NCBI GenBank assembly: GCA_964387325.1
Contig: CAYLYE010000001.1
Span: 85,453-144,094 of the forward strand
Direction of reading: 5' to 3'
Length of the DNA stretch: 58,642 bases
From: an uncultured Planctomycetaceae bacterium
GTDB lineage: Bacteria > Planctomycetota > Planctomycetia > Pirellulales > PNKZ01
A program made the position numbers and the translations under genes. Shown one piece after another: positions 12,601 through 55,925 of this stretch. Under the pieces are notes generated by a model that worked only from the letters and a program-made list of their open reading frames with translations, did no database searches and was not told where the DNA came from. How positions within the stretch are numbered: position 1 is the stretch's first letter; each line of letters begins with the position of its first letter.

Positions 12601-12788
12601 GGAGCCAGGCCAGGGGCTTCGGTCAAGATCGTGACCCGGGGCCGATTCAAATCCGGAAACACGTCGATGGGCAACCCATACAACACATAGCTGCCGTAGA
12701 CGAGCGCCACGAGCGCCGCCACGAGCGTGAGCAGTCGATAACGAAGGGCCAACTTGATAACGGCGTTGAGCATGAAGACTCGTGGCAA
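9612..12788 (-). CDS. CusA/CzcA-family heavy-metal efflux RND transporter (1058 aa)
   Basis: Typical HME-RND length and sequence, for example [41 protein letters not shown] and [20 protein letters not shown]. Confidence 0.95.
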   Translation of the reverse strand: [1058 protein letters not shown]

Positions 12789-12837
12789 AATGAGCGATGA
12801 GGCTTGGATCCGGTGTCGGAATCGGTCGTCGTGTGCG

Positions 12838-14259
12838 CTAGTGGTTATGGCCTGCGTGCGGATCGACTCCGCCGCCGGCTTTGTTTTTCAAGGCCAACTG
12901 CAATTGCTGTGCGGCTGACAGTGCGATGCGTTCGCCGGGAAAGATCGAGCCATCGTTGGCGATGACCACCGACTGGGGATCACGGTACTCGACACGCACG
13001 GCTTGTCGATCGAAGCGTGCGCCGTTGGCGCGAAATACATAGTTCTCGACGCCCTCTTGAGCCACGGCGTCGGTGGGTAACACGATGCGCTCGGTCCAGC
13101 GTTCGACCGGCACGCGCAGCTGCATCCGCTGACCCGGTTTGTACCGCCACTCGACGAATCGCTGGCTCCCTGTGTCGCGCGTATCGCGCACGGTCTGATT
13201 CGGCAAGATGACGTAAAAATGCAATGCGCGTGAACTCAGGTCGACGCGATTGGCTACGTACGCCATATGCAGGTCGCCGATCTGGTTCGCCGCCGAGACC
13301 TTGCCTTCAAGGATCGCCGTGACCATCGTATCGTCGGCGACGGCTTGCGTAATATGCGGCGCGTCTTGCTCGAAGGCCTCGCCTTCGATGAGCAACTCAC
13401 GATGGTCGGTCAACACGGCCAGCGTGTCTCCGACAGTTACGTGTTGACCATGCTCGACCTTGAGCTCCTGGACTTGCAGGATGACTTCATCCGTGGACAC
13501 CGGCGTCGGGTTGGCTTTGCTCGGCGCGCGGACGGTGATGGTGCTCAGCAGCGTCCGCGTTTTCAGGATACTTTCGACCTGGGGCTCGGTTAGCCCATGC
13601 AGCAATAACGCTTGCCGTTGGGCGCGGTGTACGGCCTCTTGCTTCTGTTGCTCGTATTTGCGTTCCAGAACGGTCTTCATAGCAATAACCCCTTCGGAGA
13701 TGCTTTCGAGCCGGGCAATTTCGCGTCGCACCACGTCCAGTTCCTCAGTCGTGCGCAGCAAGTCGGCTTGGGCTTGCACCAACTCTTCGTGCGTGAGCCG
13801 AACCTCGAACAACGCCTGATCGGGCGAGACCGCTTCCCCTTCGGTGGGATGTATCTTGGTCACGTAACCGGTCATCGGCGCGATGATGTCGATTTTCGAG
13901 CGACCGCGCCGTTCGACAACAATACCCGGCACGCTGATCGTGCGATCAAACGCTGAGAGCGCCACGGGCCCTTCACGCAACCCAATACTGTCGCGTGCTT
14001 GATTGCTTAACTCCAGCGAGTGCTCCTCGGCGTGGCTGGCATGCGCATGGTCGTGACCGACGTGAGCTGGAGATGATGCTGCCGTGGGAGTGACGTGGCC
14101 GCTGGCGCTCTTGCCAAGTGCCAGCAGCAGTTGCTCACGCACTGCGGGCAGCGACCAGCCACACGCGGCAATCAGTACGATTCCAACGACCCAGCCGAAA
14201 GGTCCTCGCGAAGGACGACGGACGGTCGATGGCGGTGTGAGTGGAGTTACGCTAGACAT
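12838..14259 (-). CDS. Efflux RND periplasmic adaptor (membrane fusion protein) with His-rich N- and C-terminal tails
   Basis: It has HlyD/MFP-like coiled-coil and beta-barrel regions, HVGHDHAHASHAEEH near the N-terminus and DPHAGHNH at the C-terminus. The start is set at ATG 14259; the ORF-track start at 14292 is a TTG. Confidence 0.9.
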   Translation of the reverse strand: MSSVTPLTPPSTVRRPSRGPFGWVVGIVLIAACGWSLPAVREQLLLALGKSASGHVTPTAASSPAHVGHDHAHASHAEEHSLELSNQARDSIGLREGPVALSAFDRTISVPGIVVERRGRSKIDIIAPMTGYVTKIHPTEGEAVSPDQALFEVRLTHEELVQAQADLLRTTEELDVVRREIARLESISEGVIAMKTVLERKYEQQKQEAVHRAQRQALLLHGLTEPQVESILKTRTLLSTITVRAPSKANPTPVSTDEVILQVQELKVEHGQHVTVGDTLAVLTDHRELLIEGEAFEQDAPHITQAVADDTMVTAILEGKVSAANQIGDLHMAYVANRVDLSSRALHFYVILPNQTVRDTRDTGSQRFVEWRYKPGQRMQLRVPVERWTERIVLPTDAVAQEGVENYVFRANGARFDRQAVRVEYRDPQSVVIANDGSIFPGERIALSAAQQLQLALKNKAGGGVDPHAGHNH

Positions 14260-26661: not shown

Positions 26662-27849
26662 TTACAAAGTTTGCGGTCGAACGACGTGTTGCGCCAACTC
26701 ACTAGCGCGCGCCACGGCGATGTCGTCGGGCACGTTCTGACCGTTGGTTACATAACTGAGCGGCAACTGGCACTCCCGCAGCAGCGGCAACAAGTTGCCC
26801 AAGTTCGTGGTTTCGTCGAGCTTGCTCAGGATCAAGGCTGTGGTCCCGACGTCGGCAAAACTCTCGGCGGTGCGCATGAGCGTGCGGGTGCCCGTGACGG
26901 CGCTGAGTACCAGATGCACATCCTGCACGCCGGCCTCGGTCAAAAAGCTTTTCAACTCTTGAATCTGCACTTCGTCTTTCAGGCTGCGGCCGGCCGTGTC
27001 GAGCAACACCAAGTCGAGGTTGGCCAAGTCAGCCGTCGCCTGGCGAATTTCACGCGGCGTGGTGACGACCCGCATCGGCAAATCGATGATGTCGGCATAG
27101 GTCCTGAGCTGCTCGACGGCCGCGATACGATAGGTGTCGACCGTGATGAGTCCGACCCGCTTCTTCTCGCGGAGCCGATAATGGGCGGCGAGCTTGGCGA
27201 TCGTGGTCGTCTTGCCAACCCCGGTCGGACCCACGAGCGCCACCAAACGGCACTGGCCGGGAGTCAATTTCAACGGACCACTGCAATGAATCTCGTTCTC
27301 GATGAGCGTCGTGAGACGTGAACGCAACGTCCGCTCATCGGTCAGCTCATGATCGGGGACCAACGTCCGCACACGCTCGACCAACTCGCGGGCCAGCGCT
27401 TCGTCGAGTTCGGCGTCGATCAAGTCGGTGTACAGTCGGAAGAGCCGATCGGGGAGCGTCGTGCTCGCTGAGTTGTTCGTGCGGCGACACAGTTCTTCGA
27501 CAACGTTTTGCAGGTGTTGCAATTGACCGCGTAGCTCGTCTCGAAAGGCTTGCTTATCGGACGTCGGCTCGCTGGGCAATTTCATCTCAGCGACCGGAAC
27601 CGGTATGTGTGCCACCGCGGCCGGCGCGGGAGGGGGCGGCGACAAGGCCTCGCGCGAGGGCCAACGACTCGGCACGTTGACTTCGTTCGAGGCGACCACC
27701 TCGAACTTGCGCATCCCGGGAATCCAGCGAAACAGCCCGCTGTTGTTGATCTCGCGCGTGTGCAGCACGGCGGCCGACGGTCCCAGCTCGCGGCGGACCA
27801 TCACCAAGGCCTCTTGCAGCGTCGTGGCTCGAAAGGTGCGAATGTCCAT
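26662..27849 (-). CDS. flhF: Flagellar biosynthesis SRP-type GTPase FlhF
   Basis: It has the G1 motif GPTGVGKTTTIAKLAA, LLDTAGR, and SKLDET. Confidence 0.9.
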   Translation of the reverse strand: MDIRTFRATTLQEALVMVRRELGPSAAVLHTREINNSGLFRWIPGMRKFEVVASNEVNVPSRWPSREALSPPPPAPAAVAHIPVPVAEMKLPSEPTSDKQAFRDELRGQLQHLQNVVEELCRRTNNSASTTLPDRLFRLYTDLIDAELDEALARELVERVRTLVPDHELTDERTLRSRLTTLIENEIHCSGPLKLTPGQCRLVALVGPTGVGKTTTIAKLAAHYRLREKKRVGLITVDTYRIAAVEQLRTYADIIDLPMRVVTTPREIRQATADLANLDLVLLDTAGRSLKDEVQIQELKSFLTEAGVQDVHLVLSAVTGTRTLMRTAESFADVGTTALILSKLDETTNLGNLLPLLRECQLPLSYVTNGQNVPDDIAVARASELAQHVVRPQTL

Positions 27850-27954
27850 AGGAGAAAATGATGAATGCGGAATGATAAATGATAAATGTACGAGTCAGCT
27901 AATCGCGATTTCTCAACTCCAGTCTCTCGTCTCCGGTCTCCCGTCTGTTCTTCC

Positions 27955-30048
27955 TCACTTCGCGTCGCTCACCATACTGACCGCCTCGATCTGCGTGTCG
28001 CGCGTGATCTCGTTAAAGCTCAGCACCACCAATTGCGGCAGATGCGATTGGGTCAGCCGTTTGAGTAACGGTCGCGTCTGCGGACTCACGAGCACGATGG
28101 GCGGGTGATTGCCGCGCTTGAGCTTCTCCAACTCGGCGGCGATCAAGCGGCACGTGACGTCGATCGCCTGCGGCGACATGCGAACCACAATGCCCCGCTC
28201 GGTCAATTCAGCCCCGGCGCGGATGCGATCCTCGATGGCCGGGTCGAGCGTGATGACTCGCAACGTGCCGTTGCTGTCGCGATACCGGCCACAAATGGTG
28301 CGCCCCAACCGATGTCGAACGAACTCGCCCAGCAGCACGGGATCTTTGGTCCGCGCGGCGTAATCGCCGAGCGTCTCCAGGATCGGCGCAAGCTGCCGGA
28401 TCGGCACCTGCTCGTTGAGCAACAGCTGTAAGACCTGCTGCAACTCGGCCAGCTTCATCACGCCTGGCACCAGCTCATCGACCACCGCCGGCGAGGTCTT
28501 CTTCAACTCGTCGAGCAAATGCTTCGTGGCGTCGCGGGTCAGGATTTCATCGGCATGTTTACGCACGACCGCCGAGAGATGCGTGGCGATGACCGCCGAG
28601 GGCTCGACCACGGTGTAGCCGAGCATCTCGGCCCGCTCGCGCTGGGCGGGCTCGATCCAAGTCGCCGGGCGATCGAACGCCGGTTCCCGCACGTCGATCC
28701 CCGTCACCTTGCCCGTCGTTACGCCCGAGTCCATCGCGAGCTGCATTTGTGGATAGATCGTTCCTTGTGCCACGGCGACGCCGGCTATCTTGACGCGATA
28801 GGTGTTCTGTTCCAGGCGCATGTTGTCACGCAACCGGACCTTGGGCAGAATAATGCCCACGTCGCTGGCGACCATCTGCCGCACGCCATGCACCCGTTCG
28901 AGCAAATCACCGCCGCGGCGCGGGTCGGCCAGCTTGACGAGCGACACGCTCAACTCGACCTCCATCGGATCGACTTGCAGCAGGTCCTCGATCCGTTCGT
29001 CGGGCTTTTTCTGCTGCGCCTCGGCGCTCGCCTTGGCTACTTTCGTGCGGCTGTCTTTTTCCTGTCGGTTCAGCGTCAGCGCCAGCGCCACGCAACTGCC
29101 GCCAATCGTCAGCAGCGGAATCGTGGGCAGCGACGTGAACACGAGCAGTCCCAGGAAACCGCCGGTCACCATGAGCGCTTGCGGCCGACTGAGCAATTGA
29201 CCGATAAACTCTTGCGGCAAATTGGTGTCGGTCGAGCTGCGCGTGGTCAGCAAGCCCGCCGCGAGCGAGATGAGAAACGCGGGGACCTGACTCACCAGAC
29301 CGTCGCCGATCGTGAGCTTGGTATAGACCTCGGCGGCGCGGGCCAAGGGCATGCCGCCCTGAATGACGCCGATGAACAAGCCGCCGACGATATTCACCAC
29401 GGTGATAATAATGCCCGCAATGGCATCGCCACGGACGAATTTGCTGGCACCGTCCATCGAGCCGAAGAAGTCCGCTTGCTGGGTGATTTCCAGTCGGCGA
29501 CGCTGCGCCTCTTTCTCGTCGATCACGCCGGCATTGAGATCGGCGTCGATCGCCATCTGTCGGCCGGGCATACCGTCCAAGGCAAAGCGGGCAGCCACTT
29601 CGCTGATGCGGGTCGCACCCTTGGTGATGACCACAAACTGAATGACCACGATGATGATGAAGATAATCAGCCCGACCACCATGCGATCGCCGGCGACAAA
29701 TTCGCCGAAGCTCCGCACCACCTCGCCGGCAGCCGACAGCCCCTGACGATCCGCCTTGGTCAGAATCAAACGTGTGGTCGCCACGTTGAGCACCAAACGA
29801 CCCAAGGTCGTGGCCAGCAGCAACGACGGAAAGACATTGAACTCGAGCGGGTTCTTCACATTGATCGTGGTCAGCAACATCAACACCGCCACGGTGATGT
29901 TGAGCGCCAACAGCACGTCCAACACCGGCGCAGGGACCGGCACCATGATCACCAGCACGCTGGTGATAAAGCCGATCGGCAAAATGAGGTCGGTGCCGCG
30001 CCCTAGCGCGAGTCGCGCTGCGGATGCTGGCAACGCTCCCGAGGCCAT
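27955..30048 (-). CDS. flhA: Flagellar export apparatus protein FlhA
   Basis: Typical FlhA N-terminal TM domain (FVAGDRMVVGLIIFIIIVVIQFVVITKGATRISEVAARFALDGMPGRQMAIDADL) and cytoplasmic domain. The start is set at ATG 30048. Confidence 0.95.
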   Translation of the reverse strand: MASGALPASAARLALGRGTDLILPIGFITSVLVIMVPVPAPVLDVLLALNITVAVLMLLTTINVKNPLEFNVFPSLLLATTLGRLVLNVATTRLILTKADRQGLSAAGEVVRSFGEFVAGDRMVVGLIIFIIIVVIQFVVITKGATRISEVAARFALDGMPGRQMAIDADLNAGVIDEKEAQRRRLEITQQADFFGSMDGASKFVRGDAIAGIIITVVNIVGGLFIGVIQGGMPLARAAEVYTKLTIGDGLVSQVPAFLISLAAGLLTTRSSTDTNLPQEFIGQLLSRPQALMVTGGFLGLLVFTSLPTIPLLTIGGSCVALALTLNRQEKDSRTKVAKASAEAQQKKPDERIEDLLQVDPMEVELSVSLVKLADPRRGGDLLERVHGVRQMVASDVGIILPKVRLRDNMRLEQNTYRVKIAGVAVAQGTIYPQMQLAMDSGVTTGKVTGIDVREPAFDRPATWIEPAQRERAEMLGYTVVEPSAVIATHLSAVVRKHADEILTRDATKHLLDELKKTSPAVVDELVPGVMKLAELQQVLQLLLNEQVPIRQLAPILETLGDYAARTKDPVLLGEFVRHRLGRTICGRYRDSNGTLRVITLDPAIEDRIRAGAELTERGIVVRMSPQAIDVTCRLIAAELEKLKRGNHPPIVLVSPQTRPLLKRLTQSHLPQLVVLSFNEITRDTQIEAVSMVSDAK

Positions 30049-30379
30049 GGTGACTCCGGTGGCTTGCTGATGTTGGGTTGGGAAAAGTGAAGAGGGGGGA
30101 ACGGTACTCAAACCCACCCGAAGAGTCCAGGGCGGTTTGCCCGCGCCACCTCGCTAGCAAACCGACGGACATCATCGCATTTGCTAGCATCTCGAGCGCC
30201 TGATAGCGTCGCAACGGGGTGATTGCAGCTCCTCGTGAGACCGCGCGAGCCCGGCGTCCGGTCGATCGCGCTGCTCGATGCTCTGGCTTGGCCATTTTCC
30301 CACGTTTGGGGGCAATGTCTTGATAATGGACCGCCGCGCAAGAACAATAGGCCTGTCGTCGCTGCTACACGTTCCGAGC

Positions 30380-34401: not shown

Positions 34402-35476
34402 ATGATAAGCGACTCTGCCATGATTGCCATCCGATGCACCCATGAGAAGCTGACCAAGCACGGAAAAGACCGCAAGGGCAACCAGCGTTGGAAGTGCGCC
34501 CGCTGTGGTCAGACCGTCACCCGCGAAATGGAACGCCCCCTTGGCAACCTGCGGATTGACCAAGAGAAGGCCATCACGGTCTTGAAGCTGCTCTTAGAGG
34601 GCATGAACATCCGTGCTTGCGAGCGGATTACCAATGTCCACCGCGACACGATTTGCGACTTGGTTCTTCACGTCGGTCACAACTGCGAGAAGTTCCTAGA
34701 GGCGACGGTTCACGGTGTCGAGGCTCGGTACATCGAGCTTGACGAGATTTGGAGTTTTGTCGGCTGCAAGAACAAGACCGCCGAGGCTCGCGGCTATGGT
34801 CCCGAAAAGGGCGACTCGTGGACGTGGCTTGCTATCGACGCTGAATCGAAGATGATCCTGTCGCATGTCGCTGGCAAGCGGGACGAGCACACCTGCCAAT
34901 CGTTCCTGGCCCGCTTGGACGCTGCCACGACGGGGCGTTGCCAAGTCACGAGCGATGGCCTTGGCCTGTACACATACAACGTGCCGTTCGCCTTGGGCTC
35001 GGGGGTGGACTTCGCCCAGTTGGTCAAAAAATACTCGACCACCCAAGCCGAAACCCGCTATAGCCCAGCCTCGATAATAGGCATCGACAAGACGCCCCGC
35101 TTTGGCAACCCCGACATGGACCACGTCAGCACGTCGTACAGCGATCGATTCAACCTCTCGCTACGGATGCACGTTCGCCGGTTCACTCGGTTGACCAACG
35201 CTCATAGCAAGAGCATCGAGCACCAGCGCTGCGTTGGTGGCCGAACTGCCCGAGTTGGGCCGGCACAACCGCCATGCCGTCGGCCTAATCGATGGCATGG
35301 CTCGAATCGCGCTGGTGACTGCAAACGTGACTCGAACATATCGGGAGACTAACGTCTCCCGCTCGTTGTGTTTCTTGGGGCGCTGCGCCAGGCGATCCCC
35401 CCGGCGTACGCGACGTACCGTCGCTATCGACCGGGGGCTAAATGAGGACGATCCGGCCGTCTTCCTTCTGTGTTGA
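34402..35476 (+). mobile_element. IS1-family insertion sequence remnant; ends not defined
   Basis: It contains the transposase gene above. I could not find convincing terminal inverted repeats or target duplications by eye, so the coordinates cover only the ORF-bearing segment. Confidence 0.5.
34420..35352 (+). CDS. IS1-family transposase (single-ORF type); the C-terminal end looks degenerate
   Basis: N-terminal Cys/His finger (RCTHEK...KCARCG), HTH region, DEIWSFVGCKNK, TSDGLGLY, and SDRFNLSLRMHVRRFTRLTNAHSK. Together these match the IS1 DDE-region layout (DEMWSF, TDxxxxY, ERxNLxLRxxxxRLxRKTxxFSK). Confidence 0.8.
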   Translation: MIAIRCTHEKLTKHGKDRKGNQRWKCARCGQTVTREMERPLGNLRIDQEKAITVLKLLLEGMNIRACERITNVHRDTICDLVLHVGHNCEKFLEATVHGVEARYIELDEIWSFVGCKNKTAEARGYGPEKGDSWTWLAIDAESKMILSHVAGKRDEHTCQSFLARLDAATTGRCQVTSDGLGLYTYNVPFALGSGVDFAQLVKKYSTTQAETRYSPASIIGIDKTPRFGNPDMDHVSTSYSDRFNLSLRMHVRRFTRLTNAHSKSIEHQRCVGGRTARVGPAQPPCRRPNRWHGSNRAGDCKRDSNISGD

Positions 35477-36459: not shown

Positions 36460-37608
36460 ATGGCGACCGTACCGAACACCGACATCGAACGCTTTATCGT
36501 CAAGCGCGAAGAGACCGAGGTCGACAAGCTCTTTCGCGCGCTCGTCAAGCTCGAAGGGAGCGACTTGCACCTCAAGGTCGGTCGCCCGCCGATCGTTCGA
36601 GTCAAAGGGACGTTGCGGCCGATCAATCGACCGCCGATCGAAGACGAAGAGATGGCCCGGCTCTTGTTGCCGCTGATGAATGAATCGAAGCGCAAGACGT
36701 TCGACGAGACCGGCGGCGCCGACTTCGCGCACACGGTCGATGTCGAAGGGGTTTTGTGGCGATTTCGCGTGAATTTGTTCCAGCAGCTTGGGCACCTCGG
36801 CATGGTGGCTCGCCGCGTGAATCAGTGGATCCCCGACTTTGCCGGCCTCAACCTGCCGCCCATCATGGAAGAACTTTGCAAGTTCAGCCAAGGGATGGTG
36901 CTGCTGGCCGGTGTGACCGGGTCGGGCAAGAGCACGACGATTGCCTCGATGCTCAACTACATCAACAAGAATTACCGCAAGCATATTCTCACGCTTGAAG
37001 ACCCGATCGAATTCGTCTTTACCGAGGACAAGTGCCTGATCAACCAGCGCGAGATCGGTTTCGACGTCAAAGACTTCGGCATCGGCATGAAGCACGCGGT
37101 GCGTGAAGATCCGGATGTGATGCTGGTGGGCGAAATGCGTGACGAGGAAACGTTTCTGACCGCCATTCATGCCGCCGAGACGGGGCACTTGGTGTTCGGC
37201 ACGATCCACGCGAGCAACTCCCCCTCGACGATCGGTCGCATCCTCGACTTGTTCCCACAGAACATGCACGGCGCGCTGCGTAGCGCCATCGCCATGAACA
37301 TGAAGGCCATTGTGGCGCAAAAGCTGCTCCCTTCGATCAAAGAAGGCGTGGGCCGCGTGCCGACGGTCGAGATCATGACTTTTAACGCCACGGTTCGCAA
37401 ATTGCTCTTGGAAGGCAAAGACGAAAAGCTCGGCGACGTGATTCGCATGTGCGACAAAGAAGGCATGCAAGATTTCACGATGAGCCTCAAGAGCCTGATC
37501 GACAAAGAGCTGATCGACCGCGAGACGGCCTTCGAGGTCGCTCCCAACATCGAGGCGCTCAAGATGGCGCTCAAAGGCATCGAAGTACGACAACCGGGAA
37601 TTCTGTAA
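36460..37608 (+). CDS. pilT: Type IV pilus retraction ATPase PilT
   Basis: It has GSDLHLKVGRPPIVRVKG, Walker A GVTGSGKSTT, LTLEDPIEFV, Walker B DPDVMLVGEMRD, and the His box TGHLVFGTIHA. Confidence 0.95.
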   Translation: MATVPNTDIERFIVKREETEVDKLFRALVKLEGSDLHLKVGRPPIVRVKGTLRPINRPPIEDEEMARLLLPLMNESKRKTFDETGGADFAHTVDVEGVLWRFRVNLFQQLGHLGMVARRVNQWIPDFAGLNLPPIMEELCKFSQGMVLLAGVTGSGKSTTIASMLNYINKNYRKHILTLEDPIEFVFTEDKCLINQREIGFDVKDFGIGMKHAVREDPDVMLVGEMRDEETFLTAIHAAETGHLVFGTIHASNSPSTIGRILDLFPQNMHGALRSAIAMNMKAIVAQKLLPSIKEGVGRVPTVEIMTFNATVRKLLLEGKDEKLGDVIRMCDKEGMQDFTMSLKSLIDKELIDRETAFEVAPNIEALKMALKGIEVRQPGIL

Positions 37609-39386
37609 TGCTGCCACGCGAGTTGATCGTCGCTGCTGTTTTGGTCCTCGCTCTGCTGTTTCCCGACTGGGTCGCGGCTCAGGAACCGGCCAACTGGCCG
37701 CTGGACAAAGTGATCTATCCGGCCACGCGCGGCGCGGGGGGCTATCTCGCGCTCTACAAAATCGGCTTCGTGTGGTTCGTGTTCGCGGCGTTCGTCTATT
37801 TGGCCGATTGGGTCAACTTCGACGTGCAGCAACTCAAACTGGGCACGAGCAAGTGGAACGGCATCGTCGTCGGCACGTTCCTGCTCGGCTGGCTGCTGCT
37901 GAGCCTAATCCCGTGGTTCTGGGCGGCGTTCCCGCTCTACTTGGCGTGCAGTTTAGGGCCCACGGTCGCGTACACTTTCAAACGGAACAAGTCGGTGACC
38001 GACGATGAGAAGGTGCTGACCCGCAATCACGTGCTGCAATGGGCCGCGCCGGTGTTGAAGCGCGTCGGGGTCAAGGTGCCCGAGCGGGACGCGGGGGGCG
38101 GGGGTGCGAATCTGCCGATCGAAATTTTCGTCAAGGGGGGCGCCAACGAAGGCGAAAACAAAGCCAACAGCATGCGCCTCGCAACGATCAAAGGCTATCA
38201 CGCCGCCCAACAGCTGCTGATCGATATTCGCACCCGCCGCGCTGCCGCCGTCGTGCTCGACTACTCGCAGGCGAGTGTCGCCGTGCAGTTCCAGATCGAC
38301 GGCGTGTTGAACAATGCACCAGCCAAAACGCGCGAGGGGGCCGACCCCATGCTCGAAGTGCTCAAGTCGGCGGCCTCCTTGAACCCCAAGGAACGTGTGC
38401 AGCGACAGCATGGCTGGTTCGAGATCAAGCACGAGAAGGGCAAGTACACCTGCAAAATCACCAGCCAAGGCATCCCCACCGGCGAGCGCGTGCTGGTGCA
38501 GGTCGACGACGGCTTCGCACAACAGGCCAAGCTCGACAACATCGGTCTGCGGCCCAAACAGCAAGAAGACCTCAAGAAAGCCCTGATGGAAAAAGAGGGG
38601 CTCGTGCTCGTCGCGGCCCCCAGCGGCAAAGGCCTTTCGTCGCTGTTCGTCGCCGCAGCCACCGGAGTCGACCGCTTTATGCGCAGCGCCGTGGGCGTTG
38701 AAAACGCCAAGGCCAACGAGATCCATGTCGAGAATGTCCCCGTCACGACCTACGACGCCGAAGCCGGACAGACGCCGATGACCGTCCTACCCGGCCTCGC
38801 ACGCCAGTATCCAGACGTGTATGTCGTCTACGATTTTGTGAACGGCGAAACGCTGACCATGCTGTGCAAGGAAGTGACTGATGAGAAACGGTTGGTCATT
38901 GGCACGATTCAGGCCAAAGAGGCTGCCGAGGCGATCGTTCGCGCGTTGATGCTCAAGGTGCCCACGAAGAACTTGGCGATGGCCTTGTCGGCCTGCGTGA
39001 GCGGTCGACTGGTGCGCAAGTTATGCGACAGCTGCAAGCAGGCCTACACACCAAATCCTGAGCTGTTGAAGAAGCTGCGTGTACCGCCGGAGAAGGTGAC
39101 GGCGTTCTATCAGCCACCGCCGCCCAAGGCCCCAGTGCAAGGCGAAAAGCCGACCCCGCCCTGCTCAAATTGCGGAGGGGTTGGTTACTTGGGCCGAACC
39201 GGCATCTTCGAGCTTGTGATCGTCAACAACGACGTGCGTCAGGCGATTGCGAACAAGCCGTCGGTGGAGACCATTCGTCAAGCGGCACAAAAGGCGGGCA
39301 TGGCTACGATGCAAGAAGAAGCGATCGCGCTGGTCGTTCGCGGCGTGACGTCGCTCGAAGAGATCATGCGTGCCCTCAAGGAATAA
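37608..39386 (+). CDS. Membrane-anchored GspE/PilB-like protein with degenerate ATPase motifs and an intact tetra-Cys motif
   Basis: The start ATG overlaps the pilT stop (TAATG). The N-terminal ~160 aa contain several hydrophobic helices. The C-terminal part is colinear with GspE but carries replaced catalytic motifs. CDSCK...CSNCGGVGYLGRTGIFELV is retained. Confidence 0.8.
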   Translation: MLPRELIVAAVLVLALLFPDWVAAQEPANWPLDKVIYPATRGAGGYLALYKIGFVWFVFAAFVYLADWVNFDVQQLKLGTSKWNGIVVGTFLLGWLLLSLIPWFWAAFPLYLACSLGPTVAYTFKRNKSVTDDEKVLTRNHVLQWAAPVLKRVGVKVPERDAGGGGANLPIEIFVKGGANEGENKANSMRLATIKGYHAAQQLLIDIRTRRAAAVVLDYSQASVAVQFQIDGVLNNAPAKTREGADPMLEVLKSAASLNPKERVQRQHGWFEIKHEKGKYTCKITSQGIPTGERVLVQVDDGFAQQAKLDNIGLRPKQQEDLKKALMEKEGLVLVAAPSGKGLSSLFVAAATGVDRFMRSAVGVENAKANEIHVENVPVTTYDAEAGQTPMTVLPGLARQYPDVYVVYDFVNGETLTMLCKEVTDEKRLVIGTIQAKEAAEAIVRALMLKVPTKNLAMALSACVSGRLVRKLCDSCKQAYTPNPELLKKLRVPPEKVTAFYQPPPPKAPVQGEKPTPPCSNCGGVGYLGRTGIFELVIVNNDVRQAIANKPSVETIRQAAQKAGMATMQEEAIALVVRGVTSLEEIMRALKE

Positions 39387-48865: not shown

Positions 48866-49086
48866 GATCGTCACTTAGCACAGCGCGTTCAGGGCCTCAA
48901 GCTGCCTTGACCCTCGCGGCGCGCGATACCTATAATCCCGCCCGCTCTTCAGACCCCCAACGGTTTTGCTAACTCCTTTTGCACCTTTGCGCTGGAGCTG
49001 TTCGTGTATCGCGCGCAACTTGTGTTGCTCGTGACTCGCGAGATGGCTTCGGACAGGACGTTGCTCGTTTGCTAACGCGATCGGTC

Positions 49087-52000
49087 ATGGATGATCGAGG
49101 CGAGACGCACCGCGCGCCCCATCGGCGCCGCGCCGTGGGGTTGTGTGCGCTGCTCGCATGGTTCGTCAGCGCGCTCTCGTCGATCGCACAGGCTCAAGTC
49201 GATCTGCCGCGCGGCGATCCCACCGAGCGATTCACTTTCACCGCCCAACGTGCGAGCAAATGGGCTGACGGCACCTACGACGTCTGGTTGTTGCAAGGCG
49301 ATGTTACGCTGCAACAAGGGACCGCGATCGCGCGCAGTCAGGAAGGCGTGTTGTGGATTCGGCGTGGAACCGATCCCAACGAGCAGCTCAACATGGTGAT
49401 TGCGTACCTCGAAGGGAACGTGAACATCAACTATCAACGAGCCGGCTATCCGTATCAACTCACCGATCGCACGTGGCTTGGCGAGTTCTTTTCAGCACAG
49501 CCGATCGAGGCCCGTGCTCCGCCGCCGGGTCCCGAGCCGCCCGTAAAGCCGCCCGTGTTTGCCAACGCGCTCGCGCGGCGCGACCCGATCTCGCCGCAGG
49601 CCGTAGTCCGCACACAGTTTGATCTCCCCACGCCTTCGACCGCGCCGGCCGTACCGGCTCCGACCGTCGTGCCGGCTCCGGTCGGAGCGCCGGTCGTGGG
49701 CGGGGCGCGTCGCATTCGCGCCTTTCCTCGCAGCAGCGTGCCGCTCCAGGTGCGCTTTGAGCCCAACCCCAACGACCCGACCGGCCAGGAACAAATTGTC
49801 ACGGTCCCGACCGGAATCAACCTGATCGTCGATGGTCTGCCGCAGGTCGGTCAGATCGACGTATCGACCGATCGCATGGTGATCTGGACCCAAGGCGTGG
49901 GACTCAATGCCGGAGGCGAGACGACGCAAGACCCCAGCACGCCGCTCGAACTCTACATGGAAGGGAACATTGTCTTCCGCCAAGGAGACCGCGTCGTGCA
50001 TGCCGATCGCATGTACTACGACGTTCGCCGACAGGCGGGTGTGATCCTGGGAGTCGATCTGCTCACGCCACTGCCCGGCTTCCAGGGTATGACGCGCATG
50101 CGCGCCGAGTTGGTGCGGCAACTCGATCAAGACCGGTTCCTGGCCCAGTCGGCATTCATTACGACCAGCCGACTCGGTGCTCCGCGCTATCGTTTGCAGG
50201 CCGAGAACGTCATGTTCCAGGACGTGCAACAGGACGATTTCAACTTCATCAATCAGCCACCGTCGGTCGATCCCTCGCAACCTCAACCGCAACCCCAACT
50301 CAAGCATCAGCAACTCGTCACGTCTCAGAATAATTTTGTCTACCTGGGCAACATTCCGGTCGGCTACTGGCCGGTCTTCTCGGCTGATTTGAACGACCCG
50401 TCGTATTTCTTGCGGGGCATTCGCTTCAAAAACGATCAGGTTCTCGGCACGCAGGTGTACACCGATTGGGATTTGTTCCAACTGCTGGGCATTCGCAACA
50501 AGCCGCAAGGGGTCGATCTGACCGGCAGCTTGGATTACCTCAGCCTGCGCGGGTTCGCCGCCGGGGCCACGCTCGACTATCGCCGCGAAGAACTGTTCGG
50601 CCAACGGGGCGCCCCGACCGGCTTCGCCGACTTCTGGGGACTCAAAGAGAACGGCCTCGATCGACTGGGCAGTGACCGCTACAACCTCGCTAGCGAGGCC
50701 ACCTATCGCTACCGCGGTCAAGGTCGCCACCGACAAACGATCTTCGACGGCTGGGAACTCACCGCCGAGTACGGCGCCATCAGCGATCGTAACTTCCTCG
50801 AACAGTACTTCCGCCGCGAATGGGACCAAGACAAAGATCAGACCACCGGACTGCAACTCAAAAAGATTTGGGACAACCAGTCGCTGGGCATCGCAGCCGA
50901 CGTTCGACTCAACAAGTTCTTCACGCAAACCGAGCGCCTGCCACAAGCCGATCATTATCTGCTCGGCCAATCGCTGCTCTTCGACGCAATCACCTACAAC
51001 GAGCACACGTCGATCGGCTATGACCGGCTCCGCGTGGGCAGCATCCCACTCGATCCGTATCAGGCGTCGATCACGCAGCTGCGCCCCTGGGAGGTCACGG
51101 CTCAAGGCTCGGTCTTGACGACGCGGCACGAACTCGATCTGCCGTTCGCCGCCGGCCCCTTCAAATTTGTCCCCTTCGTGCTCGGCGAATACGGACACTG
51201 GGGACAAGACGTGAACAATCAATCGCTCGACCGACTTTACGGCCAAGCCGGTGTTCGCGCCAGCCTGCCGTTCTGGACCATGAATCCGTATGCCGAGAGC
51301 GAACTGTTCAACGTGCATGGCATCGCACATAAGGTGATGCTCGATGCCGAGTACTCGTATGCGACTACGAACCGTAGCCTGACCTTGCTGCCGTTGTACA
51401 ACCCGCTCGACGACGATGCGCAAGAAGCATTCCGCCGCCGATTTGTGTTCAACACCTTCGGTGGCACGATGCCGAATCAATTCGACGAACGGTCTTACGC
51501 CCTGCGCAGCGGCTTGCAAAATTGGGTCAGCTCACCCACGCCAGAAATTGCCGACAATCTCAGCACCTTCCGCTTAGGCGCACGTCAGCGATGGCAAACC
51601 AAACGCGGCCCGGCCGAAAATCGCCGCATCGTCGATTGGATCACCTTCGACACGAACGTGACCTTGTTCACCGATCCCGATCGTGACAACTTTGGTCAGG
51701 TAGCCGGGTTGGCCAACTACGACTTCCGCTGGCATGTTGGCGACCGACTCACCCTGCTCAGTAATGGAATGTACGACTTCTTCGACCAAGGATTGCACTA
51801 TACGAGTGTCGGCGTAAATCTTACCCGGCCCCCGCGCGTCGGAGCATACCTGGGCTTCTCGACGATCAATGGCCCCGTGCAGTTCAACTCGCTGCTCGCG
51901 CAGATGTCGTATCGCCTGAGTCCCAAATGGATCGCCGCGGCCTTGGCGCTCGTCGACGTCAACAAGCAAGGGATCATCGGCAATCAACTGTCGCTGACCC

Positions 52001-52164
52001 GCGTGGGCGAATCGTTCATGACCAATTTCGCATTCAGCTACGACCGCTACCGACAGAATGTATCGCTGAACTTCACACTCGAGCCGAGGTTCTTGACCCG
52101 CACGCGATTTGGAAACGTCGGGGGCGTCCCGCTACCACCGGCCGGACTGTACGGGCTGGAATAA
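49087..52164 (+). CDS. lptD: LptD-like LPS-assembly outer membrane protein (OstA-like N-terminus plus a large beta-barrel)
   Basis: Signal peptide (GLCALLAWFVSALSSIAQA), OstA-like stretches (VWLLQGDVTLQQG, YMEGNIVFRQGDRVVHADRMYYD), ITTSRLGAPRYRLQAENV, and a long region with alternating aromatic residues ending in an aromatic-rich tail. Confidence 0.7.
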   Translation: MDDRGETHRAPHRRRAVGLCALLAWFVSALSSIAQAQVDLPRGDPTERFTFTAQRASKWADGTYDVWLLQGDVTLQQGTAIARSQEGVLWIRRGTDPNEQLNMVIAYLEGNVNINYQRAGYPYQLTDRTWLGEFFSAQPIEARAPPPGPEPPVKPPVFANALARRDPISPQAVVRTQFDLPTPSTAPAVPAPTVVPAPVGAPVVGGARRIRAFPRSSVPLQVRFEPNPNDPTGQEQIVTVPTGINLIVDGLPQVGQIDVSTDRMVIWTQGVGLNAGGETTQDPSTPLELYMEGNIVFRQGDRVVHADRMYYDVRRQAGVILGVDLLTPLPGFQGMTRMRAELVRQLDQDRFLAQSAFITTSRLGAPRYRLQAENVMFQDVQQDDFNFINQPPSVDPSQPQPQPQLKHQQLVTSQNNFVYLGNIPVGYWPVFSADLNDPSYFLRGIRFKNDQVLGTQVYTDWDLFQLLGIRNKPQGVDLTGSLDYLSLRGFAAGATLDYRREELFGQRGAPTGFADFWGLKENGLDRLGSDRYNLASEATYRYRGQGRHRQTIFDGWELTAEYGAISDRNFLEQYFRREWDQDKDQTTGLQLKKIWDNQSLGIAADVRLNKFFTQTERLPQADHYLLGQSLLFDAITYNEHTSIGYDRLRVGSIPLDPYQASITQLRPWEVTAQGSVLTTRHELDLPFAAGPFKFVPFVLGEYGHWGQDVNNQSLDRLYGQAGVRASLPFWTMNPYAESELFNVHGIAHKVMLDAEYSYATTNRSLTLLPLYNPLDDDAQEAFRRRFVFNTFGGTMPNQFDERSYALRSGLQNWVSSPTPEIADNLSTFRLGARQRWQTKRGPAENRRIVDWITFDTNVTLFTDPDRDNFGQVAGLANYDFRWHVGDRLTLLSNGMYDFFDQGLHYTSVGVNLTRPPRVGAYLGFSTINGPVQFNSLLAQMSYRLSPKWIAAALALVDVNKQGIIGNQLSLTRVGESFMTNFAFSYDRYRQNVSLNFTLEPRFLTRTRFGNVGGVPLPPAGLYGLE

Positions 52165-52261
52165 TCGATTCAATCGGACCGTTATTCGTCAGCTATAATT
52201 CCTTCGCCGTAACTCTTGGCGACTCCATCTCTCTCCGGGGCCGCGATGGTTTTGGCACACG

Positions 52262-52320
52262 GATGCGGAGTCCACGGGGTAACTCTCTCTCCTACCCTTT
52301 GGCTCCGCATCTCTTTTTTT
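52262..52320 (+). terminator. Terminator candidate after the lptD-like gene
   Basis: gatgcggag (52262-52270) pairs with ctccgcatc (52303-52311) and is followed by tcttttttt. The loop is long at ~32 nt, which weakens the call. Confidence 0.5.
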
Positions 52321-52721
52321 GCGCGCAATTCTTGGCCGTGCAAATTTTTTTGCGAACCTTGCTGTCTCGGTTCGCACCCCCCGAGCATCAGTGGTTTTCT
52401 GGTTGAATCCCCACGAAAGGGTGAATTCGAGCACTTAAAATCACACATTAAGATTACCCATTTTATCAATACAACCCACACCACCAAGCGTGGATTGTGG
52501 TCGGCAGATACATCGAGCAAGACAGATAAAACAAGATGGACTGAGATGTTTGACTAGCCTGGGATGAATGAATAAGATTCGCGAGTTCTCGTAATGGGTC
52601 GCATGCGTTATCTGGATCGTTTTCGGAAGCAGGGATGACTAGCGAGAATTATTCACCTCGGGTGTAAACCTCTCTGTTGTAGAGAGGCCATTTTTTAGGT
52701 CTTCATTTCTGGAGAGAGAAA

Positions 52722-53075
52722 ATGAAGAAGTTGATTGCTCGTTTGTGGGCCGAGAACGATGGCGCCATCGTGTCGGCCGAGATCATGCTTGTCACCAGCA
52801 TCCTGGTGTTGGGCGTGATCGTGGGTCTCAAGAGCCTGCGTGACTCGGTCGTGACCGAGTTGGCCGACGTGGCTCAAGCACTGGCCAATGTGGACCAGTC
52901 GAGTTTCTACAGTGGCACGGCCGGCCACCATGCCAGCACGGGCGGTCTGCTCTTTAGCGACCTGCCTGACTTTTGCGACACCAATCCTGGATTGGCCGGC
53001 GTGCAAGAGTCGAAGTGCGTCACGATTTGCAGCTCGCTGCTGCATCCCAATGGAGTCGGCGCCGACGGCCTATAA
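52722..53075 (+). CDS. Flp/TadE-like N-terminus protein with a conserved GHHA/Cys C-terminal module, paralog 1
   Basis: It reads MKKLIARLWAENDGAIVSAEIMLVTSILVLGVIVGL (compare Flp G-ATAIEY-hydrophobic), then YSGTAGHHASTGGLLFSDLPDFCD and KCVTIC. GGAGAG lies upstream of the ATG. Confidence 0.7.
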   Translation: MKKLIARLWAENDGAIVSAEIMLVTSILVLGVIVGLKSLRDSVVTELADVAQALANVDQSSFYSGTAGHHASTGGLLFSDLPDFCDTNPGLAGVQESKCVTICSSLLHPNGVGADGL

Positions 53076-53134
53076 GCCAGCGCAGTCCTTGGGCTCGTTT
53101 CTACTTTGATCTCTTTCACACAGGATAATTCATC

Positions 53135-53482
53135 ATGATGTTGCAACGTTTTTGGAATGAAGAAGATGGCGCGATCGTTTCGGCCGAGATTATGCTCGTT
53201 ATGAGCATTCTCGTGCTCGGCGTGATCGTCGGGTTGAAGAGCGTCCGTGACTCGGTCGTCACCGAGTTGGCTGACGTGGCCCAAGCTTTGGCCAACGTCG
53301 ACCAATCGGTGTTCTACAGCGCCACGTCCGGCCACCATGCCTTTACCGGTGGCTTGTTCTTCAACGATCTGCCCGACTTCTGCGATACGAGTGATCCCAT
53401 CGCCGAAGGTCAGCAATCGAAGTGCGTGGTCATTTGTGCTTCGGCGATCCATCCCAATGGCGCCGGCGCCGACGGTTTCTAA
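53135..53482 (+). CDS. Flp/TadE-like N-terminus protein with the GHHA/Cys module, paralog 2
   Basis: It is a tandem duplicate of 52722..53075. The proteins are highly similar, while many DNA differences fall at third codon positions. Confidence 0.7.
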   Translation: MMLQRFWNEEDGAIVSAEIMLVMSILVLGVIVGLKSVRDSVVTELADVAQALANVDQSVFYSATSGHHAFTGGLFFNDLPDFCDTSDPIAEGQQSKCVVICASAIHPNGAGADGF

Positions 53483-53521
53483 GTCGATTTCGTTCGTGTA
53501 ACGCGAACGATTGTCTTAAAC

Positions 53522-53555
53522 GCGAAGCCACGAGGCTGCAACCTCGTGGCTTCGC
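53522..53555. terminator. Strong hairpin between convergent genes, a candidate bidirectional terminator
   Basis: The 14-bp stem gcgaagccacgagg (53522-53535) pairs with cctcgtggcttcgc (53542-53555) across the loop ctgcaa. Confidence 0.65.
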
Positions 53556-53727
53556 GGCTTTCTATCGCCGCGGCTTTTCAACCAAGGCCTCGCCGCGGAT
53601 CACCCACACGACCGACGATGCGCTCGGCCAACCCTAGAAGGAGAGAGAGTTTCCAGGATCGACCTCACGATTCATCACGTCATGCAACGGCAACCCGCGG
53701 CGAATGGGCCAGGCTGACTCCTCGCGG

Positions 53728-54915
53728 CTACTTGACGATCAATTGCACCTCGGGCAACGCCTGCTGCAGCCGATGCAGCCCCACTTCGGTCACTCGCGTC
53801 CCTTGCAACTCAAACAACGCGAGTTGCTTCAGGCTGCGAGCGGGTACCAACCCCGCGTCGCTCACGCTGCACTCGATGATGTGCAACTCACGCAGCGCCG
53901 GCAGATTCAACAAGTGTACGAACACACCGTCGGTCACAGAGGTCTGAATCAGATACAGCGTTTGTAAGTGCTTCAGATCGGCCAGTGCGGCGATCCCATC
54001 ATCCGTGATCTGCAAACCACTGATGCACAGGGCCCGTGTGTTCTTGAGCGCGGCGATCCGTTTCAACTCGTCGTTCGTACCGTTGATCACCTTGATCAGG
54101 TTGCCATCGTTGGGCAGTGGTAACGTCGTCGCAGCGACACGCTGCGCGCCTGGTTGACCGACCGCGCCATGATGCGGGTGCATCGCGTGCGGAGCATGAT
54201 GGCCTCCGATCGCTCCATAGCCGACACCGTACTGCGCACCGGGAGGCGGGAAGCTAATGATCGAGCCCTCCGGTTGACCGTAGCCCAGGCGAGCGTGCCC
54301 GTGGCCGTAACCGTAGGCCGGAGCGGGACCGCACGTGCGGCAACCAAGCTGACCACAAATCGGCGCGGCGACGGTGACCCCCTTCGAGTAGGCGTAACCT
54401 TGCTGGGGCACCACGTGCAATCGCGGCTGAGGCACAACAGGCGCCGGAGCCGGCTGAGGTGCCGTGGCAACCGCTCGCGGCGGAGCGGCTAGGGGCGGTG
54501 CGATCGCGGCCGGTGCCGGATTCGCTGGGGCGGGGGGCACGGGATTCGCCGCTGCCGGATTCGCTGCCCCGACGTTGGGCGGCGGTGGCAGTGTGTAGCC
54601 AAACACATCAGCACAGGTCACGATCCGCTCACGCGGCGCGGCTGCCAGACGTTGATCGACGCAATCTTTCTGATCGATGTAGATGCTCCCAGCGGTGAAG
54701 GCATGATGACCCGCCACACCCGAGAAGCAAAACGATTGATCGATCGAACCGAGCGCCTCGGCCAGATCAGCCAGCTCCGTGTTCACCGCATCGCGCAGGC
54801 CCGTGAGCCCAACCGCACTGCCGAGCACGAGCGCCGAGCCGACCATCACGATCTCGCTCGAGAGCACAAAGCCCTCCTCCTCAAACCACAGTTTTTTCCA
54901 CATGCGACTGTTCAT
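53728..54915 (-). CDS. Flp/TadE-like N-terminus plus GHHA module, fused to a Pro-rich/His-Gly-Tyr-rich linker and C-terminal leucine-rich repeats (paralog 3)
   Basis: It reads MNSRMWKKLWFEEEGFVLSSEIVMVGSALVLGSAVGL, then FSGVAGHHAFTAGSIY, a PAPANPAPA-type linker, GGHHAPHAMHPHHG, and LRRs (LKHLQTLYLIQTSVTDGVFVHLLNLPALRELHIIECSVSD). The start is ATG 54915 or 54903. Confidence 0.75.
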   Translation of the reverse strand: MNSRMWKKLWFEEEGFVLSSEIVMVGSALVLGSAVGLTGLRDAVNTELADLAEALGSIDQSFCFSGVAGHHAFTAGSIYIDQKDCVDQRLAAAPRERIVTCADVFGYTLPPPPNVGAANPAAANPVPPAPANPAPAAIAPPLAAPPRAVATAPQPAPAPVVPQPRLHVVPQQGYAYSKGVTVAAPICGQLGCRTCGPAPAYGYGHGHARLGYGQPEGSIISFPPPGAQYGVGYGAIGGHHAPHAMHPHHGAVGQPGAQRVAATTLPLPNDGNLIKVINGTNDELKRIAALKNTRALCISGLQITDDGIAALADLKHLQTLYLIQTSVTDGVFVHLLNLPALRELHIIECSVSDAGLVPARSLKQLALFELQGTRVTEVGLHRLQQALPEVQLIVK

Positions 54916-55061
54916 ATCTCTCGCACCTTTCCGTTTCACTTGTTTCAGCCTGACTTGCCTTGCCCACGTCAATCACTTTCGCGGTGACGGTCGTTATGCA
55001 ATACACAAACCGTGGTGATGCGAAGGTGAGGCTATGGTGAAGCGCCTCGAAAAATAATTGG

Positions 55062-55925
55062 TCAAATCGGTCGTTGGAACTCGCCACTCTCCAGCCAGCG
55101 CGGCTGCACAACCGTCCAGAAGTCGACGGCCACATGCTGCTCGATGTACTCATAAGGAAGCCATCCGTAGCCCTGCTCGCCCCATGCGTTGCCCCATGCG
55201 GTGCGAACGAGCAATGCCCCCTTGGTCGAACGGATGCGACGCGTGTCGTCGTAACCGGCCAACACGATCGGCTGCCCACCGAGCATCGTGTCGAACTGGG
55301 TCGGCCAAGGAATGTCGGCCTCGCCAGTGATCGAGTCGGGGACCGCAAAACCCCCGACAATGGCCCAGCCAGCGGCTAAAAAACCACGCACACACTTGAG
55401 CGTGTCGCTGCCGTCTTGCCCGGGAGCATCGAGTCGCACGTAGGCCAGCTCGGACCACTCACGCGCGTATCCATATAACAAGGGATCGCGACGCTCGGCC
55501 GCTTGCGTCCACAGTCTTTGTGGCGGAGCACCATAACGAACGAGTGCTTTAAGCACTTGGCGAATTTGCTCGGCCGATGCAGAACTCCCTCCGAGACGGG
55601 CAGCCACGTCCTGCAAAAAGTCGGCCGATAAGTCGAGCAACCGCCCCGACGCGCGACGCTCGAAGTATTGCACCAACGCGACACAACTCGCGGCCGTGGC
55701 GGTCGCCGCCGAACGGCTCTCGCCAATCGGTGCAAAATACTCGCGCAGGTCACAGCGGTTCGGCAACGCGCCCCGGGCGCGACGTCCCAAGCTGCTCCAC
55801 CAGAGCCGCGCACGTTCGGCGTCGTAAAGCCAATCACGTGGATCGGGACAGTCGCGGATCCACGCCGGCGCAGCAAGGGTGATGGGAAGCATCATGAAAG
55901 GGGAGGCTCGACGTGCCTTCTGCAT
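55062..55925 (-). CDS. Papain-like (C1 family) peptidase homolog, apparently lacking the catalytic His and Asn
   Basis: The C-terminal part GGQPIVLAGYDD...LLVRTAWGNAWGEQGYGWLPYEY is colinear with the C1 motifs GGHAVxxVGYDD and NSWGxxWGxxGY. CDLREYF...AASCVAL corresponds to the active-site Cys region. Confidence 0.7.
   Translation of the reverse strand: MQKARRASPFMMLPITLAAPAWIRDCPDPRDWLYDAERARLWWSSLGRRARGALPNRCDLREYFAPIGESRSAATATAASCVALVQYFERRASGRLLDLSADFLQDVAARLGGSSASAEQIRQVLKALVRYGAPPQRLWTQAAERRDPLLYGYAREWSELAYVRLDAPGQDGSDTLKCVRGFLAAGWAIVGGFAVPDSITGEADIPWPTQFDTMLGGQPIVLAGYDDTRRIRSTKGALLVRTAWGNAWGEQGYGWLPYEYIEQHVAVDFWTVVQPRWLESGEFQRPI

Follow-up and report, generated by a model that had tools for sequence, protein, structure and literature searches.

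What do three related genes encode when their products match no named protein family but begin like pilins? The window, by which we mean the whole stretch of 58,642 nucleotides analyzed from an uncultured Planctomycetaceae bacterium, carries two tandem small genes, A (52722–53075) and B (53135–53482), and a longer gene convergent with them, C (53728–54915); the proteins and spacers are named after these genes. We think it likely that all three products are prepilins and that the family they belong to, which is found in Planctomycetota, consists of "extended" pilins of type IVc (Tad/Flp-type). The copies in the window are typical orphan paralogs and add little by themselves. The interest rests in the family, whose homologs elsewhere supply the pilus operons, the shared signal sequences, and the sequence depth on which the answer is built.

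Three paralogs of an unannotated planctomycete family

Gene A, on the plus strand, is an open reading frame of 117 residues that matches the hidden Markov model (HMM) of the family with E = 1e-56. Its leader (residues 1–14, 52722–52763) ends in ENDG, and the predicted mature protein (residues 15–117) combines a helix, which spans residues 12–55, with a head of about residues 56–117 that contains a GHHA motif, three aspartates (D80, D83, and D86), and three cysteines (C85, C99, and C103). Gene B, on the same strand, encodes 115 residues with a leader (residues 1–12, 53135–53170) ending in EEDG (E = 3e-59). Gene C lies on the minus strand and encodes 395 residues starting at MNSRMW (E = 3e-31); its frame is open back to a TTG at 54972, yet the homologs begin at MNSR. 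Scanning the window with the family HMM gave no copies beyond A, B, and C.

The first-pass annotation, made from the sequence alone, had described A, B, and the N terminus of C as paralogs of one architecture, and the open reading frames and shared elements were all recovered. These elements are the acidic leaders (ENDG, EEDG, and EEEG), a hydrophobic helix with a Glu at position +6 relative to the leader Gly, the LRDSVVTELADVAQALANVDQS helix (RD-x-V-x-TELAD-x-A-x-AL), the block S-[GA]-x-[AS]-G-H-H-A-x-T-[GA]-G, and a D-x-C-D element. The last of these holds as written for A and B (DFCD) and not for C, where the Cys sits one position over (D-C-V-D). A and B are 77% identical in protein sequence, and A is 48% identical to the N terminus of C (~113 residues). 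At the nucleotide level A and B share 73.6% identity, with 1.11 substitutions per synonymous site (dS), 0.19 per nonsynonymous site (dN), and thus a dN/dS of 0.17. Because most synonymous sites differ and few nonsynonymous sites do, both genes must have been kept by selection, as had been argued from their divergence at third codon positions; a ratio near 1 was not found. The locus is also richer in A+T than its surroundings, as previously noted. The 557-bp spacer that precedes A has a G+C fraction of 0.47 and genes A and B have 0.53–0.57, compared with ~0.60–0.67 in the flanks, and low values are mostly confined to that spacer and the two small genes.

The three proteins belong to a large family. 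A profile search returned 2678 clusters at 50% identity, 1397 of them with E ≤ 1e-10, and 356 sequences are close homologs of A with lengths of ~110–125 residues. All named sources are Planctomycetota, one of them the cultured strain Planctopirus hydrillae JC280. No Pfam or NCBIfam model scored above its threshold with A, B, or C or with 65 homologs; among the homologs only a weak match to Flp1_like (PF16982) was seen, in 7 of the 65 (best E = 0.034). Some members carry the JGI name "Flp pilus assembly pilin Flp," and we found no description of the family in the literature. There are many copies per genome, some of them dispersed at positions kept between genomes and others in tandem arrays of two to seven; flp genes, too, typically occur in tandem. 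Around the orphan copies, the recurrent neighbors (DUF1501, PSCyt, PQQ propellers, and response regulators) reflect lineage-specific synteny only, and we judge these abundant planctomycete genes not to be functionally linked to the family.

Which positions matter was read from a diverse alignment of 104 sequences at 31–45% identity. Near-invariant are G14, E20, G31, G35, R40, E46, D49, Q59, D80, and D83, and the best-conserved part of the family is the N-terminal ~60 residues with the hydrophobic helix, not the C-terminal region. Gly at −1 and Glu at +6 are retained in 103 of the 104 members when the Glu is counted by aligned column; a simple regular expression (E followed by a hydrophobic residue) places it at exactly +6 in 84 of 104. 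At +1 the members have F, A, or V, as pilins do, and at +7 they have I or L. In the head, C85 is retained in 86 and C99 in 80 of the sequences, the commonest number of Cys residues is two (C85 and C99), and the median length is 60 residues. The general signature of the family is QSY...G-S-x-F-x-D-x-x-D-F-C-D...C-V.

This alignment changes the status of the GHHA block, which the first-pass annotation had called strictly conserved and had linked to a possible metal-binding HH/Cys head. Strict conservation holds among close relatives. In the diverse set of 104, 67 sequences have His69 and 21 have the second His, so GHHA is a trait of a subfamily. The second His is frequently A, S, or G, in members linked to tad operons as well, and a metal-binding HH pair was for this reason rejected as the defining feature. 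With HH removed from the conserved core, a metal-binding head is unproven, and the two-Cys pattern (C85 and C99) fits a pilin-type disulfide better. C85 and C99 may form a disulfide of the pilin "D-region" kind, and the loop with D80, D83, and D86 might bind a cation.

Pilus operons and the register of the glutamate

The strongest evidence for a pilin comes from the genomic context of homologs, sampled at 62 loci from GTDB genomes. In 8 of the 62, a family member occupies the flp position of a complete tad operon, in three gene orders and in different lineages. In five Pirellulales/Planctomycetaceae metagenome-assembled genomes (MAGs), one strand encodes Peptidase_A24, TadE, RcpC/CpaB, TadG (PF13400), CpaF (T2SSE), TadB, and TadC, and the pilin gene is divergent from this set and followed by genes for conserved proteins of 573 and 408 residues. 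Two loci (L039 and L044) have the co-directional order pilin, second divergent pilin, RcpC, CpaF, TadB, and TadC. The third order (L049, Thermoguttaceae), also co-directional, is pilin, A24 peptidase, TadE, RcpC, TadG, CpaF, TadB, and TadC, and begins with the classical flp-tadV arrangement. No canonical Flp lies within 10 kb in seven of the eight tad-linked loci. The proposal of a class III (Flp/TadE-type) N-terminal signal is thereby borne out by homologs encoded at the flp position of operons with a prepilin peptidase.

Two kinds of neighbor deserve mention. A 573-residue multi-pass membrane protein (L066, 10617–12338) and a 408-residue protein (12407–13633) are conserved directly downstream of the tad-linked pilin, and the pair also occurs in L012, L014, L022, L036, L045, and L050. 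Neither has an informative match in Pfam, NCBIfam, or the PDB, and both are candidates for a role in pilus modification or as accessory proteins of the pilus. The second pilin-like genes of L039 (3796–4170) and L044 (10494–10862), directly 3′ of the family pilin, have a different head and carry Asp-Tyr where the family has its Glu (G|AIAGADY and G|FIGSTDY).

The first-pass annotation had remarked that the Glu of the putative signal is one position off the canonical place. The shift is real, is family-wide, and is common to TadE of the linked operons. In all six tad-linked operons that have a TadE, the TadE signal reads RRLG|A[VI]LS[ML]EL, with Ser at +4 and Glu at +6, matching the pilin pattern G|A-[IV]-[VI]-S-A-E-[IL]; these TadE proteins pass PF07811, scoring 26.1 bits where 22.9 are required. 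Canonical planctomycete Flp, in contrast, is a PF04964 protein of 57–61 residues with the signal SEDG|PTAVEY and Glu at +5 (a genuine one scores 35.6 bits against the PF04964 cutoff of 32.2), and the TadE genes adjoining it in Planctomicrobium piriforme have Glu at +5 as well. A Glu shift common to the pilin and TadE of one operon, unlike the canonical set of the same genome, is expected of a separate, co-adapted filament system. Canonical Flp appears in the same genomes as the family, either as an orphan or beside TadE/TadE/TadG genes with Glu at +5 (L022, 17801–18010; L072, 10001–10186 and 10469–10654; L073, 10001–16057).

How far the family departs from known Tad pilins can be measured against the Caulobacter Tad pilus, in which Glu +5 and Tyr +6 build the core hydrogen-bond network, the prepilin has a 14-residue leader and the pair Glu19/Tyr20, and the mature pilin is a bare 45-residue helix without a head (PMC11067988). 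An hhalign comparison of the family with canonical Flp aligned Gly with Gly and Glu with Glu across a one-residue gap (E = 0.006), which may be taken as weak support for kinship. The predicted mature length of ~100 residues compares with a single helix of 45–60 residues for Flp. Because the Flp HMM, the Glu5/Tyr6 pair, and the expected size all fail, we set the family apart from PF04964. Finding homologs to be ordinary Flp pilins in complete tad loci had been named beforehand as grounds for abandoning the idea of a distinct module. The tad loci are there, at 8 of 62, but their pilins are not ordinary Flp, as they escape PF04964, carry Glu at +6, and are ~100 residues long when mature.

The predicted structure agrees with a pilin of the headed kind. 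An AlphaFold model of A from the diverse alignment (mean predicted local distance difference test score, pLDDT, 83.8) has one continuous helix, residues 12–55 (44 residues), and a small head with short strands, in which residues 61–80 reach a pLDDT of ~95. It supersedes a model from a shallow alignment (65 sequences at 60–80% identity), in which the head had a pLDDT below 50. A short leader, Gly at −1, ~20 hydrophobic residues with a conserved acidic residue among them, and a long helix with a head are the features of the type IV pilin superfamily, and all are present, with the caveat that the Glu lies one position off. Searching PDB sequences with a profile returned no matches at E ≤ 10, and when the diverse-alignment model was compared with the PDB by Foldseek, the best E value was a meaningless 3.7, so no relative of the head was found. 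The earlier statement that the C-terminal module matches no named domain stands for Pfam, NCBIfam, the PDB, and Foldseek alike.

We favor the surface filament that the first-pass annotation had offered as one option, and a working scheme can be proposed. The N-terminal hydrophobic helix would insert the protein into the inner membrane, and an A24 aspartic peptidase of the TadV/CpaA type would cut the 12–15-residue leader after the invariant Gly, so that the mature protein would begin with Ala or Phe and have its conserved Glu at +6. The CpaF/TadB/TadC motor would then extract and polymerize the ~100-residue mature subunit into a filament with the conserved N-terminal helices as its core and the ~60-residue, Cys-containing heads on its surface. 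A and B, as dispersed tandem paralogs, would be alternative or additional subunits encoded apart from the machinery, and C, if incorporated at all, would most plausibly be a low-abundance or tip subunit that displays its leucine-rich repeat (LRR) domain on the fiber.

A number of results weigh against assigning the family to Tad pili. A, B, C, and the 65 homologs match neither PF04964 at E ≤ 1 nor the TadE model PF07811, and the hhalign probability for canonical Flp is 6%. Both canonical rules, Glu5/Tyr6 and the headless 45-residue helix, are broken. Most copies of the family are orphans, unlinked to pilus genes, and phmmer searches with seven Tad proteins found no tad genes in the window, as the first-pass annotation had also reported. 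The tad-linked operons include RcpC, but no protein with a secretin (RcpA/CpaC) domain was called in the 10 kb around them (L066, 1–20336, is among these loci). Canonical Flp also coexists in family-bearing genomes (MAG-44, locus L072; 5N533, locus L022), where it could be the true major pilin; the one in 5N533 (L022, 17801–18010) lies 7.5 kb from the tad operon.

The main alternative for the family would be that it is not the major fiber subunit: its members could be minor pilins or pseudopilins of a Tad system, with a TadE/TadF-like priming or tip role, or could form a short periplasmic pseudopilus, the canonical 60-residue Flp being the major subunit. The coexisting PF04964 genes suit such an arrangement, as do a Glu+6 dialect held in common with the pseudopilin TadE, the lack of a secretin gene beside these operons, and a size and extra domain typical of minor pilins (PMC12075869). 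Yet canonical Flp and its own TadE use the other register, Glu+5, which argues for two separate systems, and the family gene stands first, in the flp position, in co-directional operons with no canonical Flp nearby. The extreme conservation of the N-terminal 60 residues and arrays of up to seven copies are likewise what a major pilin would show. We consider the minor-pilin explanation unlikely. Less likely again are bitopic inner-membrane proteins held by a signal anchor (N-in/C-out), never cleaved or polymerized, whose head, or LRR domain in the case of C, would act on the periplasmic side and might, for example, assist or regulate the Tad machinery. Such anchors would account for the many copies away from pilus genes, for a Glu off the canonical +5, and for the pairing of C with a catalytically dead papain-like protein in place of pilus genes; they would not account for an acidic-x-Gly leader and a Glu retained in 103 of 104 members, for helix conservation far beyond what a simple anchor needs, or for a motif common with TadE in a gene that adjoins a prepilin peptidase, and we find them improbable. 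The first-pass annotation had also raised a secreted-peptide system, in which the products would be precursors of bacteriocin-like or ribosomally synthesized and modified peptides, with the acidic-Gly leader as export signal and the Cys/His region as product. Small, multicopy, Cys-containing proteins with a leader ending in Gly do recall such precursors, but no maturation or export genes recur alongside, the hydrophobic helix and not the C-terminal "core" is most conserved, and the synteny is with tad genes. This idea gained no support, and we give it almost no credence.

A bolder proposal can be made for the family as a whole. Tad pili might come in two structurally distinct classes, and the family could supply the subunit of the second, headed, with Glu at +6, and with its own co-adapted TadE, peptidase, and motor. 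Polysaccharide-binding, pili-like fibers arise from the crateriform structures of planctomycetes (PMC5394234), and the players behind these fibers have been called "still unknown" (PMC12673574). The second pilus class might be these fibers, with paralog arrays providing alternative heads and LRR fusions serving as tip adhesins. We offer this as speculation that is rather unlikely to hold.

Protein C, regulatory sequences, and flanking genes

Protein C joins a pilin module to an independent domain. Residues 1 to ~113 (54915 to ~54577) form the module, with a 15-residue leader (EEEG|F) and Glu at +6, and are followed by a Pro/Ala linker, a segment rich in His, Gly, and Tyr, and an LRR domain at about residues 283–395 (54069–53731). 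This composition is the one first read from the sequence, with the qualification that the LRR matches in C itself are below the Pfam cutoff. They are above cutoff in homologs of the same architecture (P0234, P0243, P0259, and P0269), and precomputed LRR matches exist for P0124–P0127. The architecture of C recurs in P0122–P0127, and at least five further long (≥330 residues) representatives of 50%-identity clusters have a C-terminal LRR, P0214 being below the Pfam cutoff. The fusion recurs across many lineages, and in C an N-terminal pilin module is joined to an independent domain, as in modular pilins.

Upstream of C on the same minus strand (55062–55925), a 287-residue protein resembles xylellain, a papain-fold protease (PDB 3OIS, E = 9.5e-17 over ~220 residues). 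Relative to the 3OIS triad, its catalytic Cys is Ala, its His is Gln, and its Asn is Thr, and all three residues are replaced in five orthologs as well (L004, 6297–7127; L028, 8766–9638; L031, 12596–13513; L043, 7002–7913; L026, 17148–18044). A papain-like gene of 287–305 residues immediately precedes the pilin-LRR long form on the same strand in all six loci that have the long form, with 43–80% conservation across MAGs. The gene is probably in one operon with C, and its product looks like a conserved pseudoenzyme partner of C. The long form also converges on a short member of the family close by in five of the six loci; the exception is L026, whose nearest short copy lies on the opposite strand at a distance of ~5.6 kb.

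The start of gene A is preceded by a conserved promoter and leader region (52545–52721, plus strand), delimited by a promoter and hairpin scan and by alignment with L004, the closest relative. It contains a sigma-70-like element, TTGACT-17-TAAGAT (52550–52578), a hairpin CCTCTCTGTTGTAGAGAGG with a T-run (52669–52696), and the Shine-Dalgarno sequence GGAGAGAG before the start codon; good Shine-Dalgarno sequences stand ahead of both A and B. In the spacer shared with L004, near-identity extends for ~180 nucleotides, from ~52545 to the ATG, and the distal part cannot be aligned. Conservation begins abruptly ~5 nucleotides ahead of the sigma-70-like element and runs through the hairpin to the Shine-Dalgarno sequence. 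Since the CCTCTCT arm of the hairpin (52669–52687) is complementary to the downstream GGAGAGAG, it could occlude the Shine-Dalgarno sequence or cause attenuation. The 5′ leader of A folds no better than shuffled sequences (z = −1.3), and an Rfam search of 52000–55200 gave a sub-threshold match to SAM_alpha alone. Downstream of B, an intrinsic terminator-like hairpin (53521–53556, plus strand) with a 15-bp stem, 11 of the pairs G-C, followed by GCTTTCTATC, closes the A-B unit between the convergent genes B and C.

A different promoter type is found among homologs. A sigma-54-type −24/−12 element ([TC]GGCAC-N5-xTGC[TA]) lies 100–140 nucleotides upstream of the start codon in 18 of 98 family members, compared with a background rate of 3.5% per 300 nucleotides, and its carriers include five of the eight tad-linked members. 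Examples are seen at L012, L014, L022, L036, L044, L011, and L064. Upstream of A, B, and C, no such promoter was found within 300 nucleotides at up to three mismatches.

Elsewhere in the window, two adjacent genes for T2SSE-family ATPases (PilT/PilB-like; 36460–37608 and 37449–39386, plus strand) lie ~15 kb upstream of A; they are unrelated to the tad set and only weakly similar to CpaF. The segments 26662–30117 (minus strand) and 34402–35352 (plus strand) carry flagellar export genes for FlhF (SRP54-type GTPase) and FlhA (FHIPEP) and an IS1-family transposase-like open reading frame. The 1061-residue open reading frame directly upstream of the locus (48979–52164, plus strand) has no significant match in Pfam or NCBIfam and a faint one to LptD_N (E = 0.07).

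Comparison with known filament systems

Overall, this is a large, unannotated, phylum-wide family that departs from the minimal picture of a Tad pilin (PMC11067988). If its members are pilins, type IVc pili would be structurally more varied than known so far, and the two Glu registers point to parallel signal "dialects" in one genome. The family also provides concrete candidate genes for planctomycetal surface fibers, some of them carried by cultured organisms, among them Planctopirus hydrillae JC280, and a Pfam or NCBIfam model would annotate thousands of "hypothetical proteins" as pilins.

Among known systems, the type IVc pilins of the Flp/Fap kind (Caulobacter PilA and Aggregatibacter Flp1) are alike in their leader, which is acidic and ends in Gly, in their hydrophobic helix with a Glu, in the flp position beside a small A24 peptidase gene in tad operons, and in tandem paralogs. 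The family differs from them in having Glu at +6 and not +5 and Ile or Leu in place of the conserved Tyr (PMC11067988), in a mature length of ~100 residues with a predicted head instead of a bare 45-residue helix, and in its failure to match PF04964.

Type IVa and IVb pilins and the pseudopilins of type II secretion systems offer a second comparison. They follow the same "lollipop" plan, and half of the family has a G|F-type junction; two conserved Cys residues and an acidic D-x-x-D-x-x-D loop in the family head add to the likeness. The sigma-54-type promoters upstream of many family members recall type IVa/IVb pilins too, as pilA genes are known to depend on sigma-54. The linked machinery, however, is of Tad type (CpaF, TadB/C, RcpC, and TadE/G) and not PilB/PilC or Gsp, the family lacks an N-methylation-type motif (FTLIE), and its head is much smaller, with no detectable structural relative.

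The nearest counterparts of C are modular pilins such as PilB of S. sanguinis (PMC8179133) and Tad tips such as TadG/KilN (PMC12075869), which share with it the plan of a pilin module, a linker, and a binding-type domain. C differs in that its cargo is an LRR domain, its module is extended Flp-like and not TadG (PF13400), and its gene has a dead papain-like gene as partner instead of lying in a tad or tip cluster. That partner, in turn, is homologous to xylellain (3OIS) over ~220 residues and differs from it in the loss of the catalytic triad. Modular architecture has been proposed to functionalize filaments (PMC8179133, PMC12075869), and by analogy C may correspond to the modular pilins of the former study and to the Tad "tips" of the latter.

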